Part shown: in pieces, positions 2,999 through 15,024 of the stretch
Layout of the letters: the number at the start of each line of letters is the position of its first letter
How positions within the stretch are numbered: the first letter of the stretch is position 1
NCBI GenBank assembly: GCA_963716725.1
Contig: CAVQUB010000032.1
Coordinates: 160,001 to 224,000, forward strand
DNA from: an uncultured delta proteobacterium
Lineage (GTDB): Bacteria; Myxococcota_A; Polyangia; Polyangiales; Polyangiaceae
Direction: 5' to 3'
DNA: 64,000 nt
Made by a program: the position numbers and the translations under genes
The notes under the pieces: generated by a model
What the model was told of the DNA's origin: nothing
The model's database searches: none
Seen by the model: the letters and a program-made list of their open reading frames with translations, nothing else

Positions 2999-3054
2999 GC
3001 TAGCGTCGACCGGAAAGCCCTCGAGTTACGGTGGGTTGGAGTGCTTGGTAGTAT

Positions 3055-3068
3055 TATGTAGTTACATA
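3055..3068. promoter_or_regulatory. Putative repressor operator TATGTA-GT-TACATA
   Basis: Perfect 6-bp inverted repeat with a 2-bp spacer, in an AT-rich patch 15 bp upstream of the ATG at 3084. Confidence 0.5.
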
Positions 3069-3083
3069 TCCTACCTTGGGGCC

Positions 3084-4844
3084 ATGAACACGTTGCGACG
3101 CACCCTCGCGCCTCTGCTCCTGTCGCTCGCCGCCGCTGTCGCCGCCTGCTCGAGCGGCGAGCCCGTTGACGACGCGGTGTCGGAGGGTCGACGCGTTCCA
3201 ACGCTACCCGGGTCGCCAGGAGGCAAGGCCGACAGCTACGTGAACAGCGCTGCCGCGGAGTACGCGTTCACCGGCACGGTGCACATGCTGACGCCCACGG
3301 GCCTCGACGCGATGACGCCCGAAGAGGTCACTGCCGCCCTCGCCAAAGCCGCGGAGACGCGCCTCGGTCCGGTGGCCTCGGCCATCGTCGGCTCCCTGCG
3401 TGAGAAGGCCAAGGCCTTCAACTCGGAGATCCCGAACGAGCTCCCGCCAGAGATCGCCGAAGCCATCGCGGGCGAGGACGACGCGACCAAGCATCACATT
3501 CTGGAGAACTGGAAGACGCAACAAGAGGTGTCAGCCGCGACGCGGTCGGGCAAGAAGCATCTGGAGACGATCCGTCAGGACACCGACGGCAGCTACATGT
3601 TCGACTTCGTGGTCGAGGGGCTGCTCTCTGCGAAGCTCGCGACCAAGATCTTTGCCGAGAGCAAGATCTTCGACGTGACCGTGACCCAGTACCAGGCGCC
3701 CACCTCGGAGACCGTCGCCGTCACCGCGGCCAAGACGCCCTCGACCGACGGCTACCCCCGCTACGACGAGCTCTTCGCCGATGGCGTGTTCGATGTCGCG
3801 ATCCACGTGGGCGGCGACTACAACAAAGAAGAAGTGAAGATCTGCTGCCCCGGCCCGAACGGCGGCGAGCCGACCTGTCAAAAGCAGGAGTGCGCGAACA
3901 ACTGCGAGCCGGTCGACGACGCCTGCTCGCAGCCGGCTCCCGCGGGCTGCACCAAAGAAAAGCTCGGGGGCCGCATCGACCGCTGGACCGCCGAGCAGCT
4001 GGTGGAGAGCCTGAAATCGGAGGGTTTCGCCCACCCAGGCGCGTCGTACCTCGACCTCCAAATCGACTCGCCGCCCTTCACCAAAGCCTACGACTTCGCG
4101 GGCAAGGCCGTAGAGGTCCGCGTCAAGATCGTCTATCCGGAGATCGTGCCCTGCGGGCAGGAGGCGAAGCTCGTCGAGTCCATGAAGGAGAGCTTGGCAA
4201 CCCGCGAGCTGATCATCTACGCGGGCCACGCCGGGCCCGGCGCCGGCTACGTGCTCGACTACCAGCCGCGCACTGAGCTCGACGACAGCGTGTGGGCCTC
4301 GCTGCCCATGCCCGACCACTATCAGGTGCTCGCCATGTACGGCTGCGAGACCTACTCGACCTACGCCGACGCGATGTACGCCAACCCGGCCAAGAACGAC
4401 GCCAACCTCGATGTGGTGACCACGGTCAACACGATGTGGACGAACATGGGGTTGCCCGGGACGACGACGCTGATGTTCGGCATGCTGATGCAGGAGCAAG
4501 ACGCGCGCCGTCACGTGCCGGTGAGCTGGCTGAACCTGCTCTCGTGGTTGAACCTGCAGGAGCAGAACGCGCACACCCACTACGGGATCCACGGCGTGGA
4601 CTCGAGCCCCAAGATCAGCCCCTGGGTGACCCCGGCGGATCTCTGCGCGAGCTGCGACACCGACACGGACTGCAAGGGCGGCGGCAACTTCTGTCTGAGC
4701 TTCCCGGACGGAACGCGTGGCTGCGGCGCCGTCTGCACCGACAGCGCGGGCTGCGGCCAGAAGTACAGCTGCGTTGCCATTCCCGGGCTCGAGAGCTCGG
4801 TGATCCCCAAGATGTGCGTGCCCAACAGCGTGACCTGCCAGTAG
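3084..4844 (+). CDS. Myxobacterial lipoprotein with GKAD motif, possible clan-CD (caspase/gingipain-like) His-Cys domain and Cys-rich C-terminus
   Basis: Signal and lipobox MNTLRR...VAA-C, motif GGKADS, LIIYAGHAG ... VLAMYGCETY, and a C-terminal CxxCxxxxDC-type disulfide module. Confidence 0.75.
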   Translation: MNTLRRTLAPLLLSLAAAVAACSSGEPVDDAVSEGRRVPTLPGSPGGKADSYVNSAAAEYAFTGTVHMLTPTGLDAMTPEEVTAALAKAAETRLGPVASAIVGSLREKAKAFNSEIPNELPPEIAEAIAGEDDATKHHILENWKTQQEVSAATRSGKKHLETIRQDTDGSYMFDFVVEGLLSAKLATKIFAESKIFDVTVTQYQAPTSETVAVTAAKTPSTDGYPRYDELFADGVFDVAIHVGGDYNKEEVKICCPGPNGGEPTCQKQECANNCEPVDDACSQPAPAGCTKEKLGGRIDRWTAEQLVESLKSEGFAHPGASYLDLQIDSPPFTKAYDFAGKAVEVRVKIVYPEIVPCGQEAKLVESMKESLATRELIIYAGHAGPGAGYVLDYQPRTELDDSVWASLPMPDHYQVLAMYGCETYSTYADAMYANPAKNDANLDVVTTVNTMWTNMGLPGTTTLMFGMLMQEQDARRHVPVSWLNLLSWLNLQEQNAHTHYGIHGVDSSPKISPWVTPADLCASCDTDTDCKGGGNFCLSFPDGTRGCGAVCTDSAGCGQKYSCVAIPGLESSVIPKMCVPNSVTCQ

Positions 4845-7109: not shown

Positions 7110-7203
7110 CCGCACCCTTGAATACATCAGCGCTGACTCGCACCTAGTGCTCCCGAGCTGACACAAGCGCGGTCATGTGTCCGTGCGGCGCTCGGGGTAT
7201 TCC

Positions 7204-9366
7204 ATGAAGAACAGGCTTTCGGGGCTGATGCTGGCCTCAGTGGTGTCGTGCGTCTTGGGCTGTTCGTCCGGTGACGGTGGGGGCGGGCTGGGCACCGGCG
7301 GCGCAGGCACCGGCGCGAGCGCGGGGGTTGGCGGAAATGCCGGCTTCGGCGCCAGCGCTGGTTCGGGTGCCGCAGCGGGCACCGGCGGGTTCGGTGGAGA
7401 AGGCGCCGGCGGAGCCGCGGGCGCTGGGGGATCGACCTTCGGCGGGGCTGCGGGCGCTGGCGGAGGCACCGGCGGCTCGGGCGGCGCGCCCGGCGGCAGC
7501 GGTGGCGTGGGCGGGGGCGGCGGCAGCGGTGGCGCGACCGCATGCGCGCACGGCGTGTGCACGGTTGGCAAGGCGCTCGCGGTCGGCTGCGATCCCTGCG
7601 TCACCAAGGTGTGCGGTGCGGACAGCTACTGCTGCCAGGCCGATTGGGACGACCTCTGCGTCAACGAAGCGTCGCAGTACTGCAATGGCATCTGCGGCAC
7701 CGGTACCGGAGGTGGCGGCGGGTTCGGTGGCACCGGCGGGTTCGGCGGCACCGGCGGCAGCGGTGGCACCGGCGGCAGCGGTGGCTCCGGCGGCGGCACC
7801 GGTTGCACCTACAACCAGTGCAAGAACGCGGCGGGTCAGTGCGTGACCCCCACGAGCAGCGAGTGTGGCAACTACGGCGCGCCCTGCGTCGACTGCACAA
7901 AGCTCGGCAGCGTGTGCGCGGGTACGACCTGCGCGGAGTGCAAGCCGAGCTGCGCCGGCAAGCAGTGCGGAGACTCGGACGGCTGTGGCGGAGTATGCAC
8001 GGCGGACTGCGGCACCGGGAAATTCTGCAGCACCAAGGGCCCGCAGAAGCCCGGCTGCTACGCCTGCAGCCCCAGCACCTGTCCCAGTGGGTGTTGCACC
8101 GCTGACGGCAAATGCGAGACCGGCACCAAGCGATCGCAGTGCGGCAACGGCGGACTGGCTTGCTCCGACTGCGGCGTGCAGGCCTGCGTCGGCAAGTACA
8201 CCGGCTACACCTACAAAGCCTCCTGCGGTCCTTGCGGGTCGACGTGCCAGCCGAGCTATCCGGGCTGGTCAGCGTCGTGTCAGGCCGACGGCTGCGGCAA
8301 CCTCTGCCCAGGAGCGGGATGTGATCCGGAGTACGGCGGAGGCACGTGCCAGGTGACCGGAGACTCGACAGCTACTTGCATGCCCGACGGGTTCTGTGAC
8401 CCCTATTCCTGCGCCAGCGGCTGCTGCGACTACTCGGGCGGGTGGATGAACTCGAAGTGCGTGCCCGGCAACCTCCCCAGCAAATGCGGTTCTGGTGCCG
8501 TCACTTGTGTCGACTGCATCTCGAAGGGCGGCAGCTGCGACACCAAGACCAACTCGTGCACCAACTGCACCCCGAAGTGCGACGCGGCCTACTCCTGCGG
8601 AGGGGCCGACGGCTGCGGGGGCAAGTGCACGGCCAAGACCGGAGGCAAGTGCCAGCAGTCTGGCGCCTCTTGCAGCGCCGATGGCGTCTGCGACTGCGGC
8701 ATGAGCGGCAAGTCCATCTGCTACAACGAGACCTCGAAGCTCTACGCCTGCATCGACGTGCTGGCGGACGCGAACAACTGCGGCGCCTGCGGCGCCGTGT
8801 GCCCGAGCGGCATGGCTTGCAAGGGCGGCGTGTGCGACTGCGGCCCAGGCTCCCTCTTCTGCAAGTCGGGCGATCCGAAGCTGCCGGGCGTGTGCACCAA
8901 TCTCGCCACCGACCCCAAGCACTGCGGCAATTGCACGACGGCGTGCCCTGGCACGGCGTGCGCCGACGGAAAATGCGGCGCCTGCGCGACGGGCACGAAC
9001 CAGTGCGGCTATCCAACTCCAGTCTGTGCCGACATGCAGAAGGACACCAAGCACTGCGGCAAGTGCTACAACGCCTGCCCGACCGGCATCGCGTGCGTCT
9101 CCGGCAAGTGCCAGTGCCCGACTGGCCAGACGTCGTGCAGCGCGAAGTGCACGGACACGACCAGCGACGCCAGCAATTGCGGGACGTGCGGCGTGAAGTG
9201 TCCGACCGGCGTCTCGTGTGCCGGCGGCAAGTGCCAGTGTCCCTCCGGCACAACCTGGTGCCAGAACAGCCAGACCTGCACCAACCTGTCGGTTGATCCC
9301 GACAACTGCGGGGTCTGCGGCACCAAGTGCTCCGGCAACTTCTGCTCGAACGGGAAATGCCTGTAG
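7204..9366 (+). CDS. Very Cys-rich lipoprotein with Gly-rich linkers and Stig1-like DxxN/HCGxCxxxC repeats
   Basis: Lipobox VLG-C, two Gly-rich linkers, CDPCVTKVCGADSYCC...WD..CV module, three DGCG modules, and five repeats (DANNCGACGAVC, DPKHCGNCTTAC, DTKHCGKCYNAC, DASNCGTCGVKC, DPDNCGVCGTKC). Confidence 0.85.
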   Translation: MKNRLSGLMLASVVSCVLGCSSGDGGGGLGTGGAGTGASAGVGGNAGFGASAGSGAAAGTGGFGGEGAGGAAGAGGSTFGGAAGAGGGTGGSGGAPGGSGGVGGGGGSGGATACAHGVCTVGKALAVGCDPCVTKVCGADSYCCQADWDDLCVNEASQYCNGICGTGTGGGGGFGGTGGFGGTGGSGGTGGSGGSGGGTGCTYNQCKNAAGQCVTPTSSECGNYGAPCVDCTKLGSVCAGTTCAECKPSCAGKQCGDSDGCGGVCTADCGTGKFCSTKGPQKPGCYACSPSTCPSGCCTADGKCETGTKRSQCGNGGLACSDCGVQACVGKYTGYTYKASCGPCGSTCQPSYPGWSASCQADGCGNLCPGAGCDPEYGGGTCQVTGDSTATCMPDGFCDPYSCASGCCDYSGGWMNSKCVPGNLPSKCGSGAVTCVDCISKGGSCDTKTNSCTNCTPKCDAAYSCGGADGCGGKCTAKTGGKCQQSGASCSADGVCDCGMSGKSICYNETSKLYACIDVLADANNCGACGAVCPSGMACKGGVCDCGPGSLFCKSGDPKLPGVCTNLATDPKHCGNCTTACPGTACADGKCGACATGTNQCGYPTPVCADMQKDTKHCGKCYNACPTGIACVSGKCQCPTGQTSCSAKCTDTTSDASNCGTCGVKCPTGVSCAGGKCQCPSGTTWCQNSQTCTNLSVDPDNCGVCGTKCSGNFCSNGKCL

Positions 9367-12289: not shown

Positions 12290-13078
<789 letters not shown>

Positions 13079-13085
13079 GGCCCGT

Positions 13086-13812
13086 TCAGAACGCCAAGGC
13101 GCCGCTCCAGGTGAAGGAGCGCTCGCCCAAGAGCGACGTTTCAAAGCGGAGGTCCAGGCCCCCGGTGGCGTCTGCGCCGACCCCGAAGCCCACCGCGTAG
13201 TGGTGCTGGTCGCTGCCGATACGCGTTCTCGCCGTCGCGCTCGAACTGAACGGGACCGCCGAAGGCGCGGGCGAGGGCGAAGGGACGGAGTCGCTCGAAG
13301 AGCGTGACGCCGACCTCGGCGCCGAGCCGAAGATCGGATGCCGAGAGCGTCGACTCATCGCCGGTAGCGGTCGCTTCGATGCGCGCTCGCGAAAAACCCA
13401 TCGAGAGCGTGGTGACGGCGAAGAGCTGCCCGTCCGCGCCGCCGAGCATGCGGTAGGCCCCGGTCACGCTTGCGAGCCAGCCCGCGCCCACCGAATAGCT
13501 CCGACCCTCTCCCTCGAGCTCACCGCCCGCGAGCAGGCCGCCGGACACCACGACGGCGGTGCGTTCGCCGAGGCGCCGCCCAAAGCTCAGCACGTACGAA
13601 CTCTGGCGCAGCGTGTAGTCGGCGTCTTCGACGCGCAGCTCGGAGCTGAAGGTCGCAGCCCCAACCGCCGCGAGCCAAAGGCGTTCGTCGGCGCTCGCAC
13701 TCGCCGCGCACCCCGTCGGACCGACGGGCGCCGCGAGCCCTCAAGCCCGCGCGGGACGCGAAACGCCCAGTCCGCCCATCACGACGGCGGTCAGGAGCAG
13801 ATGTGAACGCAT
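13086..13812 (-). CDS. Candidate selenoprotein: outer-membrane beta-barrel with in-frame TGA (Sec) at 13741-13743 and one frameshift near 13227
   Basis: ATG 13812 gives MRSHLLLTAVVMGGLGVSRPARA-TGA-GLAAPVGPTGCAASAS...RQSSYV, which continues in frame into ORF 13141..13593. After a one-base shift it ends RIGSDQHHY...FTWSGALAF (terminal Phe beta-signal). Confidence 0.7.
13700..13740 (-). promoter_or_regulatory. Bacterial SECIS-like stem-loop immediately 3' of the in-frame UGA
   Basis: UGA GGG CUCGC G GCGC CCGUCG [GUC] CGACGG G GUGC GCG GCGAG. CUCGC/GCGAG, GCGC/GUGC and CCGUCG/CGACGG pair, and GGUC lies at +19..+22 after the UGA. Confidence 0.7.
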
Positions 13813-13944
13813 GGCTGCCTAGAGTGGTGGTGGCCAACGGCAGCGTCAATCTTCGAGCGCACCTCCTGGTCGAGCCTCGGGCGAAGCCGGTAAGTGCATC
13901 GCGCGGCGGCTTGAAGCCGGGTTCCCGCCGTGTTTTCTCAGCCC

Positions 13945-15024
13945 ATGCCCAAGCCCCCGCCCGCCAAAGTCGTGCAGATCGCCGAGAAGGCCCGGAACGG
14001 TCTGCGTTCCCTGGAGCGGAAGCTGGCGCCTCCGGAGATCGGACTGCTCGGCTTCGTCAGCGACCTCTGGGGATTTCAAATCGTGTACACCTTGGCCGAG
14101 CTGCGGGTCGTCGACGCCCTCAAGGGCGGGCCGAGGCGAGCCGAGGCCGTCGCCACGGAGATCGGCGTGGACTCCGATCACCTGTACCGATTGCTGCGCG
14201 CCGCTACCCACTTCGACATCGTTCGCGAAGAACCCGATCGCAGATTCTCGCTCTTGCCGATGGGGGTCGCGCTCTGCGACGTGGAGAACGAGAGCTTTCG
14301 GGACTTCCTGATCCTGGAGGGCCGCGTGGGCTGGAGATTCTGGGGGCGCTTGAAGGACTCCGTGCGCCAGGGCAAGACCGCCATCGAGATCGAGACGGGC
14401 AAGAAGTCCTTCGAGTACTTCGTAGGCGACGAGAACGCACGGCACGTCTTCAACCGCGCGATGACCGCCATCAGCGCGGTCTCCGCCGAGGCGTTCGTGG
14501 CTGCCTACGATCTCTCCGGATTCAAGCACATCGTCGACGTCGGCGGCGGGCTCGGTCGGCTGCTCTCGGCCGTGCTGGTGCAAGCTCCGCTTGCCAAGGG
14601 CGTCTTGTTCGACCTTCCCGAGGTCGTGGCTGACGCGCCGCCGGTGCTCGAGGCGCTCGGCGTGAGGTCGAGGGTCGAGATCGTCGGTGGCAGCTTCTTC
14701 GAGTCGGTACCGGCGGGCGGGGAGCTCTACGTGATGAAGTCGATCATCCACGATTGGGCCGACGACGAAGCGCTGAAGATCCTGGAAAATGTCCGGCGCG
14801 CCGCGACTCCGACCTCGAAGCTCGTGCTCTACGAGACGGTGGTGACGCCGCCGAACGTGAAGCACTTCGCCAAGCTGCTCGACATCGAGATGATGGTGCA
14901 CGCGGGGGGGCGCGAGCGGACTCGTGATGAATACGCGGCGCTCTTCGGCAAGGCGGGGTTCCGCCTGTCGCGGCTGATCCCATCGGCGGGCCCGGCCAGC
15001 GTGATCGAAGCGGTCCCAGGTTGA
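13945..15024 (+). CDS. SAM-dependent O-methyltransferase (Methyltransf_2 with dimerisation domain)
   Basis: VDVGGGLG, FDLPEV, GSFFESVP, MKSIIHDWAD, DIEMMV..GGRERT. Confidence 0.92.
   Translation: MPKPPPAKVVQIAEKARNGLRSLERKLAPPEIGLLGFVSDLWGFQIVYTLAELRVVDALKGGPRRAEAVATEIGVDSDHLYRLLRAATHFDIVREEPDRRFSLLPMGVALCDVENESFRDFLILEGRVGWRFWGRLKDSVRQGKTAIEIETGKKSFEYFVGDENARHVFNRAMTAISAVSAEAFVAAYDLSGFKHIVDVGGGLGRLLSAVLVQAPLAKGVLFDLPEVVADAPPVLEALGVRSRVEIVGGSFFESVPAGGELYVMKSIIHDWADDEALKILENVRRAATPTSKLVLYETVVTPPNVKHFAKLLDIEMMVHAGGRERTRDEYAALFGKAGFRLSRLIPSAGPASVIEAVPG

Follow-up and report, generated by a model that had tools for sequence, protein, structure and literature searches.

A putative family of exported outer-membrane barrel selenoproteins in myxobacteria

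A gene for a predicted exported outer-membrane beta-barrel, interrupted by an in-frame TGA, lies on the minus strand of a 64,000-nucleotide stretch of DNA from an uncultured delta proteobacterium of the Polyangiaceae (GenBank assembly GCA_963716725.1, contig CAVQUB010000032.1, here C32, positions 160001-224000; hereafter the window). An initial annotation, made from the letters of the window, had proposed that this TGA encodes selenocysteine (Sec) as the first residue of the mature protein and that a selenocysteine insertion sequence (SECIS) follows it. Judging from the sequences of the gene, its relatives, and their genomes, the TGA at 13743-13741 is almost certainly read as Sec. On the same basis, we consider it highly probable that the intact gene represents a new family of exported selenoproteins carrying a Sec/Cys pair on the tail of a barrel.

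Gene layout and the deposited frameshift

The gene comprises the following features, given in window positions.

13744..13812, minus strand: signal peptide coding part; ATG 13812-13810, 23 codons with a hydrophobic core and the end A-R-A, signal peptidase I type
13741..13743, minus strand: UGA, almost certainly selenocysteine and predicted to be the first mature residue; the aligned codon is TGA in 39 of 54 loci and TGC or TGT in 11
13712..13728, minus strand: putative SECIS core, a 17-nt stem-loop; 7 bp (13728-13722 with 13718-13712), loop G-U-C (13721-13719)
13708..13710, minus strand: partner cysteine codon, residue +11 after Sec; a Cys accompanies all scored Sec and Cys forms
13681..13740, minus strand: predicted flexible Gly/Pro-rich N-terminal tail of about 20 residues; low model confidence compared with the barrel
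13086..13680, minus strand: predicted 10-stranded outer-membrane beta-barrel (AlphaFold2 models and structural matches), ending in ...A-L-A-F, stop 13088-13086
13226, no strand: surplus base in the deposited assembly, the cause of an apparent frameshift (read contigs of runs X1, X5, and X11)

The signal peptide that starts at ATG 13812 and ends in A-R-A is followed directly by the TGA, and the same frame goes on with G-L-A-A-P-V-G-P-T-G-C, in which the Cys codon at 13710-13708 gives a U-x10-C spacing; the frame reading confirmed all of these points as they had been annotated. The long stop-free barrel stretch of the initial annotation was likewise present. Past the TGA the frame stays open for 199 codons in the deposited sequence, and near 13226 the homology shifts into a second frame, which ends in ...A-L-A-F at the stop 13088-13086. 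In a profile search, the two frames corresponded to positions 6-198 and 194-243 of one family. The restored gene has approximately 218 codons after the TGA, which would encode the 10-stranded barrel with its terminal Phe.

The next in-frame ATG, GTG, or TTG past the TGA is GTG 13593, located 49 codons downstream and within the barrel. The sole signal peptide lies upstream of the TGA and no start with a signal peptide was found downstream, leaving the barrel with no alternative export route. Gene callers had been expected to truncate such a gene, and they do: the public call at this locus is a 150-aa open reading frame (ORF) starting at GTG 13593 (P0051), and close homologues are deposited as truncated "hypothetical protein" entries of 150-196 aa.

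Logan contigs of four public runs (X1, X5, X10, and X11) were aligned over 12800-14200; those of X10 did not reach the gene. The contigs of X1, X5, and X11, from three studies, all left out one base at 13226. X1 and X11 otherwise showed no differences from the window, and X5 represents an approximately 95% identical strain in which a single contig spans the whole stretch. X1 is possibly the genome's own source sample and hence not independent, whereas X11 and X5 are independent. The single frameshift of the initial annotation, placed at 13227, is therefore present in the deposited sequence and missing from the read contigs, which locate one surplus deposited base at 13226; it is an assembly error, and the gene is intact. 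In the covering X1 and X11 contigs the codon at 13741-13743 was TGA, with no other letters and thus neither TGC nor TGG, so the TGA stands. Around the TGA, the X5 differences at 13738 and 13747 are silent; within the signal peptide, the one at 13807 is also silent and the one at 13797 changes Leu to Val; these statements cover the listed X5 differences, next to which there are 29 more unlisted ones.

Family census and selenocysteine machinery

The protein was found in 20 of the 41 related genomes searched, its own included, and all six other genomes of the genus were positive. Among 401 genomes sampled from the whole phylum, a profile search detected the family in 37, and the full-length matches comprised 28 with one TGA and 10 without a stop. 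Related loci read in frame numbered 54 in 53 genomes, with the following codons at the aligned site.

TGA: 39 loci
TGC or TGT: 11 loci
neither (Phe, Gly, or Asp): 3 loci
unclassed: 1 locus (L021), N-terminus not alignable

Homologues with TGA or Cys at the site, which the initial annotation had called for, were thus recovered, with no Trp or Arg among them and no downstream starts. The internal stops are all TGA, while the natural terminators are TAG in 4 of 18. Each locus has its own signal-peptide-like upstream frame, and a signal peptide before the TGA and a barrel after it were present in 39/39 TGA forms. The presumed Sec is kept at the site in at least nine sampled taxonomic families, and in a maximum-likelihood tree of the barrel (tail removed) only two changes explain the Cys forms. 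L021 (G022:C59), which stands outside the counts, is a longer relative with a 333-aa open frame and an N-terminal extension carrying C-G-A-S-C before the barrel. L056, with 272 residues after the site, was too long and was left out of alignment A4.

All four components named in the initial annotation (selA, selB, selC, and selD) were found in the genome that carries the window. The tRNA-Sec (selC) scored 70.3 bits and was called by ARAGORN as SeC with anticodon tca, and selA, the winged-helix domain of selB, and selD were present. The selD gene itself carries an in-frame TGA (G-G-G-U-A-R-K; G000 contig C6, 227368-228291, plus strand), and selD and the barrel gene are the only Sec genes identified in this genome. 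The selA, selB, and tRNA-Sec genes lie within about 12 kb of each other (C32, 262227-273859, roughly 38-50 kb past the window end), so a single assembly gap could drop all three from a draft genome. A second SelB winged-helix match lies at C27:135943-136059, in a 353-aa open frame.

The codon at the site followed the machinery. selA was found in 37 of the 39 genomes with a TGA form and in none of the 11 genomes with a Cys form (completeness 75-100%), and tRNA-Sec was found in none of the four Cys-form genomes in which it was sought. The two TGA-form genomes where selA was not found are G135, which has tRNA-Sec, selB, and selD, and G004 (84% complete), which has a selD with an in-frame TGA and in which tRNA-Sec was not found either. 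The three loci with neither codon are all in selA-positive genomes.

The hairpin behind the TGA

The initial annotation had described a hairpin of about 15 bp with GGUC at +19 to +22 after the UGA. The GGUC is there, and folded alone the window sequence forms a long stem (-34.4 kcal/mol); however, only the apical 7-bp stem with the GUC loop (13728-13712), a 17-nt stem-loop, is conserved, and the lower stem is not. Thirty-three distinct TGA forms aligned gap-free over 59 nt. RNAalifold returned one helix for this alignment, 7 bp starting 12 nt after the UGA and closed by a G-U-C loop, and two tools agreed on this stem. Pairing was kept in 98.3% of the cells of the helix, compared with 29-57% when the partners were slid by 1-3 columns, and 15 compensatory cells carried a change on both sides. 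Pair 23-35 is CG in 28 forms, GC in 4, and UG in 1; its two nucleotides are the third codon positions of Pro and Thr, and the changes from CCC/ACG to CCG/ACC are synonymous. Pair 25-33 is UA in 19, CG in 10, and UG in 4, and pair 26-32 is CG in 32 and GC in 1. The observed values for the percentage of paired cells, the number of compensatory cells, and the covariation score were reached by none of 500 shuffles; because related sequences may beat shuffles without any structure, we give more weight to the slid controls and to the difference from the Cys forms.

GGT at +19 to +21 was present in 33/33 TGA forms and 0/12 non-TGA forms, and the mean number of pairs kept was 6.9 of 7 in the former and 3.7 of 7 in the latter. 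Six further TGA forms showed the same apex at the same offset, bringing the count for GGU at +19 to +21 to 39/39. TGA and non-TGA forms were indistinguishable in the total folding energy of the 45 nt that follow the site (p = 0.32) and are separated only by the in-register hairpin. The conservation of the hairpin, on which the initial annotation had made its proposal depend, was therefore borne out, with compensatory changes in the TGA forms and absence of the hairpin in the others. In the U-G-C subfamily described below, the hairpin reads CCCGCCGGUCCGGCGGG-like, and Val/Thr become Ala/Ala alongside a change of a U-A to a C-G pair. Rfam contained no match to 13600-13850 at E up to 10.

Numbering from the U of the UGA places the G and U of the loop at nucleotides 23 and 24. 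As described in the passages of PMC8659212 on the E. coli fdhF element, its 17-nt upper stem-loop lies 11 nt from the UGA, with U17, G23, and U24 conserved, so that the fdhF-like register claimed for the G(U) agrees with those figures. The barrel gene thus resembles fdhF in its in-frame UGA, in a 17-nt upper stem-loop with apical G/U at nucleotides 23/24, and in a genome that holds selA, selB, selD, and tRNA-Sec. It differs in that the stem-loop begins 12 nt after the UGA rather than 11, the stem is a perfect 7 bp lacking the bulged U17, and the loop measures 3 nt (5 nt with the closing G-C pair open); the barrel protein is also unrelated to formate dehydrogenase.

The selD gene of the same genome has an 8-bp stem at +27 from its TGA, with the same GGUCC apex as in the barrel gene. 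The apex shared by the two genes, in both cases without the bulged U, suggests a lineage-specific motif for recognition by SelB. A genome-wide scan for hairpins with a GGTCC apex returned 226 on both strands, 33 of them following a TGA that is flanked by open frames; among those checked, only selD and the barrel gene were coding read-throughs. Two other plausible candidates were ordinary stops, at the ends of RNase PH and of a Cys-rich protein, and the other 29 looked like off-frame Arg-rich readings, as judged by eye only.

Protein, Sec/Cys pair, and interpretation

AlphaFold2 models carrying Cys in place of Sec were built from an 18-row alignment (mean predicted local distance difference test, pLDDT, 85.5, falling below 50 in the signal peptide and tail) and from a 51-row alignment of the mature protein (pLDDT 92.5, predicted template modelling score (pTM) 0.86, barrel at residues 23-218). 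In the mature-only model, residues 1-20 had pLDDT 57-65 and the barrel was above 90. The best match among solved structures was pOmpT (Z 14.4, rmsd 3.5 over 194 residues), followed by OpcA (Z 13.9, rmsd 3.6 over 184 residues) and a designed 10-strand barrel (Z 13.1). Autotransporter barrels with 12 strands ranked after these 10-stranded matches, and the identities were all 5-14%. Foldseek likewise returned only generic outer-membrane barrels, and the Atlas look-alikes were unnamed Myxococcota clusters. A C-terminal Phe is present in 12 of 18 aligned members, so that a Sec-type signal peptide, an even predicted strand number, and an aromatic C-terminal residue occur together as in outer-membrane barrels. 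These models support the barrel of the initial annotation, and we are confident that the predicted fold is a 10-stranded outer-membrane barrel.

The full-length protein (P0002) matched no Pfam or NCBIfam (June 2026 release) family at E up to 1. This includes the omptin model PF01278, so that the likeness to omptins is one of fold only. Its database relatives are 54/54 "hypothetical protein" entries without Pfam domains, from Myxococcales or Polyangiaceae bacterium.

A Cys within 21 residues of the site accompanies 39/39 Sec forms and 10/10 scored Cys forms and is absent from the three forms with neither residue (0/3); the Cys form L051, outside the scored 10, likewise has a partner Cys. The partner column is invariant in the 18-row alignment A2. 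Two layouts occur among the Sec forms. In 23 of them, including that of the window, the tail reads U-G-x3-P-x-G-P-x-G-x(0-4)-C with Cys at +11 to +15, and in 16 it reads U-G-C-x2-P-A-G-P with Cys at +2. The latter subfamily (L048-L050, L052-L057, L060, and L065-L070) belongs to other taxonomic families of the phylum. In the Cys forms the loop reads C-G-x(9-13)-C and is variable in sequence and rich in Gly/Pro. L059 (G404), L063 (G258), and L064 (the second copy in G336) retain neither the Sec/Cys nor the partner Cys, which corresponds to two to three separate losses on the tree. That the two residues are kept or lost together argues that they work as a pair.

The sequence around the cleavage site bears on whether Sec is a free N-terminus. 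Of 50 sequences, 49 have Ala at -1, 48 have Ala at -3, and 34 carry a charged residue or His at -2 (R in 17, E in 8, H in 6, K in 2, and D in 1). A-x-A is the classical signal peptidase I site, and the usual lipobox has the form L-[AS]-[GA]-C, in which positions -2 to -4 are uncharged. Cleavage by signal peptidase II with lipidation of the Cys/Sec at +1 would account for an invariant Cys/Sec directly after the signal peptide with Ala at both positions, and a few Cys forms do have an uncharged residue at -2. We nevertheless regard a lipoprotein as very improbable, since the residues at -2 are disallowed by the usual lipobox, -3 is A rather than L/V/I, and integral barrels with a C-terminal Phe normally need no lipid anchor. 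Given the failure of the lipobox and the fit to signal peptidase I, Sec is expected as a free N-terminus. Least probable of all, and barely credible in our view, is that the TGA does not encode Sec, either as a terminator (of a pseudogene, or of a leader peptide ahead of a barrel with its own start) or as a codon read through by a standard tRNA. Public gene callers do treat it as a stop, the window copy also appeared frameshifted, and the hairpin of the single sequence is not significant. Such an explanation is contradicted by the alignment of the TGA to a single column in 39 loci, flanked on either side by open frame, by the Cys codon that replaces it where selA was not found, by the lack of a start codon with a signal peptide downstream, by a putative SECIS conserved in register with covariation, and by the absence of the frameshift from three independent contig sets.

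Several observations weigh against Sec insertion or against a function for the pair. By itself, the window hairpin does not exceed chance expectation (z = -1.84; 12 of 200 shuffles fold equally well). The E. coli element requires the bulged U17, according to the part of PMC8659212 that describes it, and the perfect 7-bp stem here is without it; the bulge is also missing from the selD hairpin of the same genome. Much of the covariation alters encoded residues (Val/Thr to Ala/Ala), so that selection on the protein and on the RNA is not fully separable. The split in selA amounts to about two independent events, as the Cys forms require two changes on the tree and their genomes are related. As to function, AlphaFold2 does not place the tail confidently, with Cys modelled for Sec, no neighbour within 1.5 kb is conserved beyond the genus, and the window neighbours are housekeeping genes.

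These neighbours are SdhA, SdhB, an O-methyltransferase, DUF3634, and peptidases; sdhB, convergent downstream, is a neighbour in the genus only. A Pfam scan of 52 flanking ORFs from 34 distant loci revealed no common theme, and the power of this analysis is low because the flanks extend just 1.5 kb. A glutaredoxin-rhodanese fusion stands beside two distant members (L044:1-1005 and L051:2654-3718), and TerB-like and TerC proteins beside one each (L037:2248-3195 and L040:2260-3069); these cases are anecdotal, are not conserved elsewhere, and provide a faint hint of chalcogen or redox chemistry. Two further ORFs of the window, 3036-4841 (plus strand, 602 aa) and 7177-9363 (plus strand, 729 aa), have coding-like GC3; neither gave a Pfam match at E up to 1e-5, and GC2 in the second is unusually high (0.70).

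Under the reading that we prefer, translation from ATG 13812 would reach the UGA at 13743-13741, and the 17-nt SECIS 12 nt downstream, with its apex G23/U24, would recruit SelB with Sec-tRNA(Sec) for the insertion of Sec. Signal peptidase I would then cut the Sec-type signal peptide after A-x-A, a predicted cleavage that makes Sec residue 1 of the mature protein. The mature protein would consist of a Gly/Pro-rich tail of about 20 residues with Sec1 and Cys12, the 10-stranded barrel, and the C-terminal Phe. Because the barrel is even-stranded, both termini should be periplasmic, and the tail would be found in the lumen or on the periplasmic side. Together with its obligatory partner Cys, Sec would form a reactive pair on a swinging arm that serves the barrel. 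That this pair on its flexible arm is a selenenylsulfide redox couple or a capture site for soft metals or chalcogens is, in our estimate, about evenly poised with its not being so. A narrower version, which we offer tentatively and consider doubtful, is a "hook" in which the N-terminal Sec, with its free alpha-amine and selenolate, and the nearby Cys (U-G-C or U-x10-14-C), on a flexible periplasmic arm, covalently capture a soft metal or chalcogen (Hg, Cu, or S/Se/Te intermediates) and pass it to or through the barrel.

The pair might instead be a structural staple, a selenenylsulfide or disulfide that closes or pins a tail loop, with Sec in place of Cys as a near-neutral habit of the lineage. 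The variable Gly/Pro-rich C-G-x(9-13)-C loop of the Cys forms would suit such a role, three members manage without both residues, and no redox partner gene is conserved nearby. We nonetheless think a mere staple unlikely. A costly Sec has been retained across at least nine of the sampled taxonomic families, the models predict a flexible tail and not a pinned one, and, from general chemistry, a partner at +2 in the 16 U-G-C forms suits a vicinal redox or metal motif better. In addition, Sec of catalogued selenoproteins typically sits in redox-related motifs, as far as the relevant text of PMC13188914 describes them.

The proteins that come nearest are of three kinds. Predicted Sec outer-membrane barrels are the GSU2204/MtrB-PioB family (NF041027) and the TonB-dependent receptor of the FCYXU type (NF049945), as given in the portions of PMC13188914 and PMC12013277 that treat them; neither model matches the myxobacterial barrel at E up to 1, and the myxobacterial barrel is much smaller, with 10 predicted strands and Sec as the first mature residue rather than in a CxxU-type motif of a large barrel. 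The omptins (pOmpT, OmpT, and Pla) and OpcA are small 10-stranded barrels and the best fold matches; identities to them are 8-10%, none of them is a selenoprotein or has an N-terminal tail with Cys or Sec, and the shared fold tells nothing about function. The U-G-C of 16/39 Sec forms recalls the UGC and UxC motifs of the DUF1573 UGC protein, the UGC-containing TlpA-like reductase, and the SO_0444 Cu/Zn efflux transporter, and a U-G-C tripeptide motif is listed for redox and metal-transport selenoproteins in Table 1 of PMC13188914. These proteins differ in fold and location and show no sequence relationship, and the window subtype has its Cys at +11, not +2.

Table 1 of the prokaryotic selenoprotein inventory of May 2026 (PMC13188914) contains 119 families and subfamilies with model accessions, and its only outer-membrane barrels are the GSU2204/MtrB-PioB family and the TonB-dependent receptor. 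None of the 119 entries is of the myxobacterial barrel kind; the match scan covered Pfam and NCBIfam models, leaving entries filed solely under cd, PTHR, or other model types unscanned. Nothing similar is mentioned in passages of the deep-Sep paper (PMC12013277) or in those of Haft's preprint (10.1101/2022.07.06.499078), and full-text literature listings returned no paper on myxobacterial selenoproteins or on a Sec-first exported barrel. The initial annotation had recognized no characterized family here, and this agrees with the absence of a Pfam or NCBIfam model and of a catalogued counterpart. The barrel gene is real and almost certainly encodes a selenoprotein; it founds a family that is not in current catalogues and that belongs within the known bacterial selenoproteins of the UGA/SECIS type.

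The prokaryotic selenoproteome would thereby gain a widespread family that has no model and is consistently mis-annotated. Its hosts are large-genome myxobacteria from biofilter, wastewater, sediment, and groundwater metagenomes, unlike the anaerobes in which selenoproteins are usually counted. The alpha subunit of formate dehydrogenase (FdhA) is the most widespread bacterial selenoprotein family and the usual "anchor" of the Sec trait. Its model TIGR01553 found no match in the 84%-complete genome that carries the window, a result that is not evidence of absence; the barrel, together with SelD, may therefore help to keep the Sec trait in this lineage. Gene callers start the gene 50 codons late and lose the signal peptide and the active residues, and a family model with a Sec-aware start would fix dozens of annotations. 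The placement of Sec, as the predicted first residue of a mature exported protein and on the flexible tail of an outer-membrane barrel, is unusual and suggests selenium chemistry in the cell envelope. If the hook exists, it would represent an unrecognized class of selenium-tipped capture arms on outer-membrane proteins.

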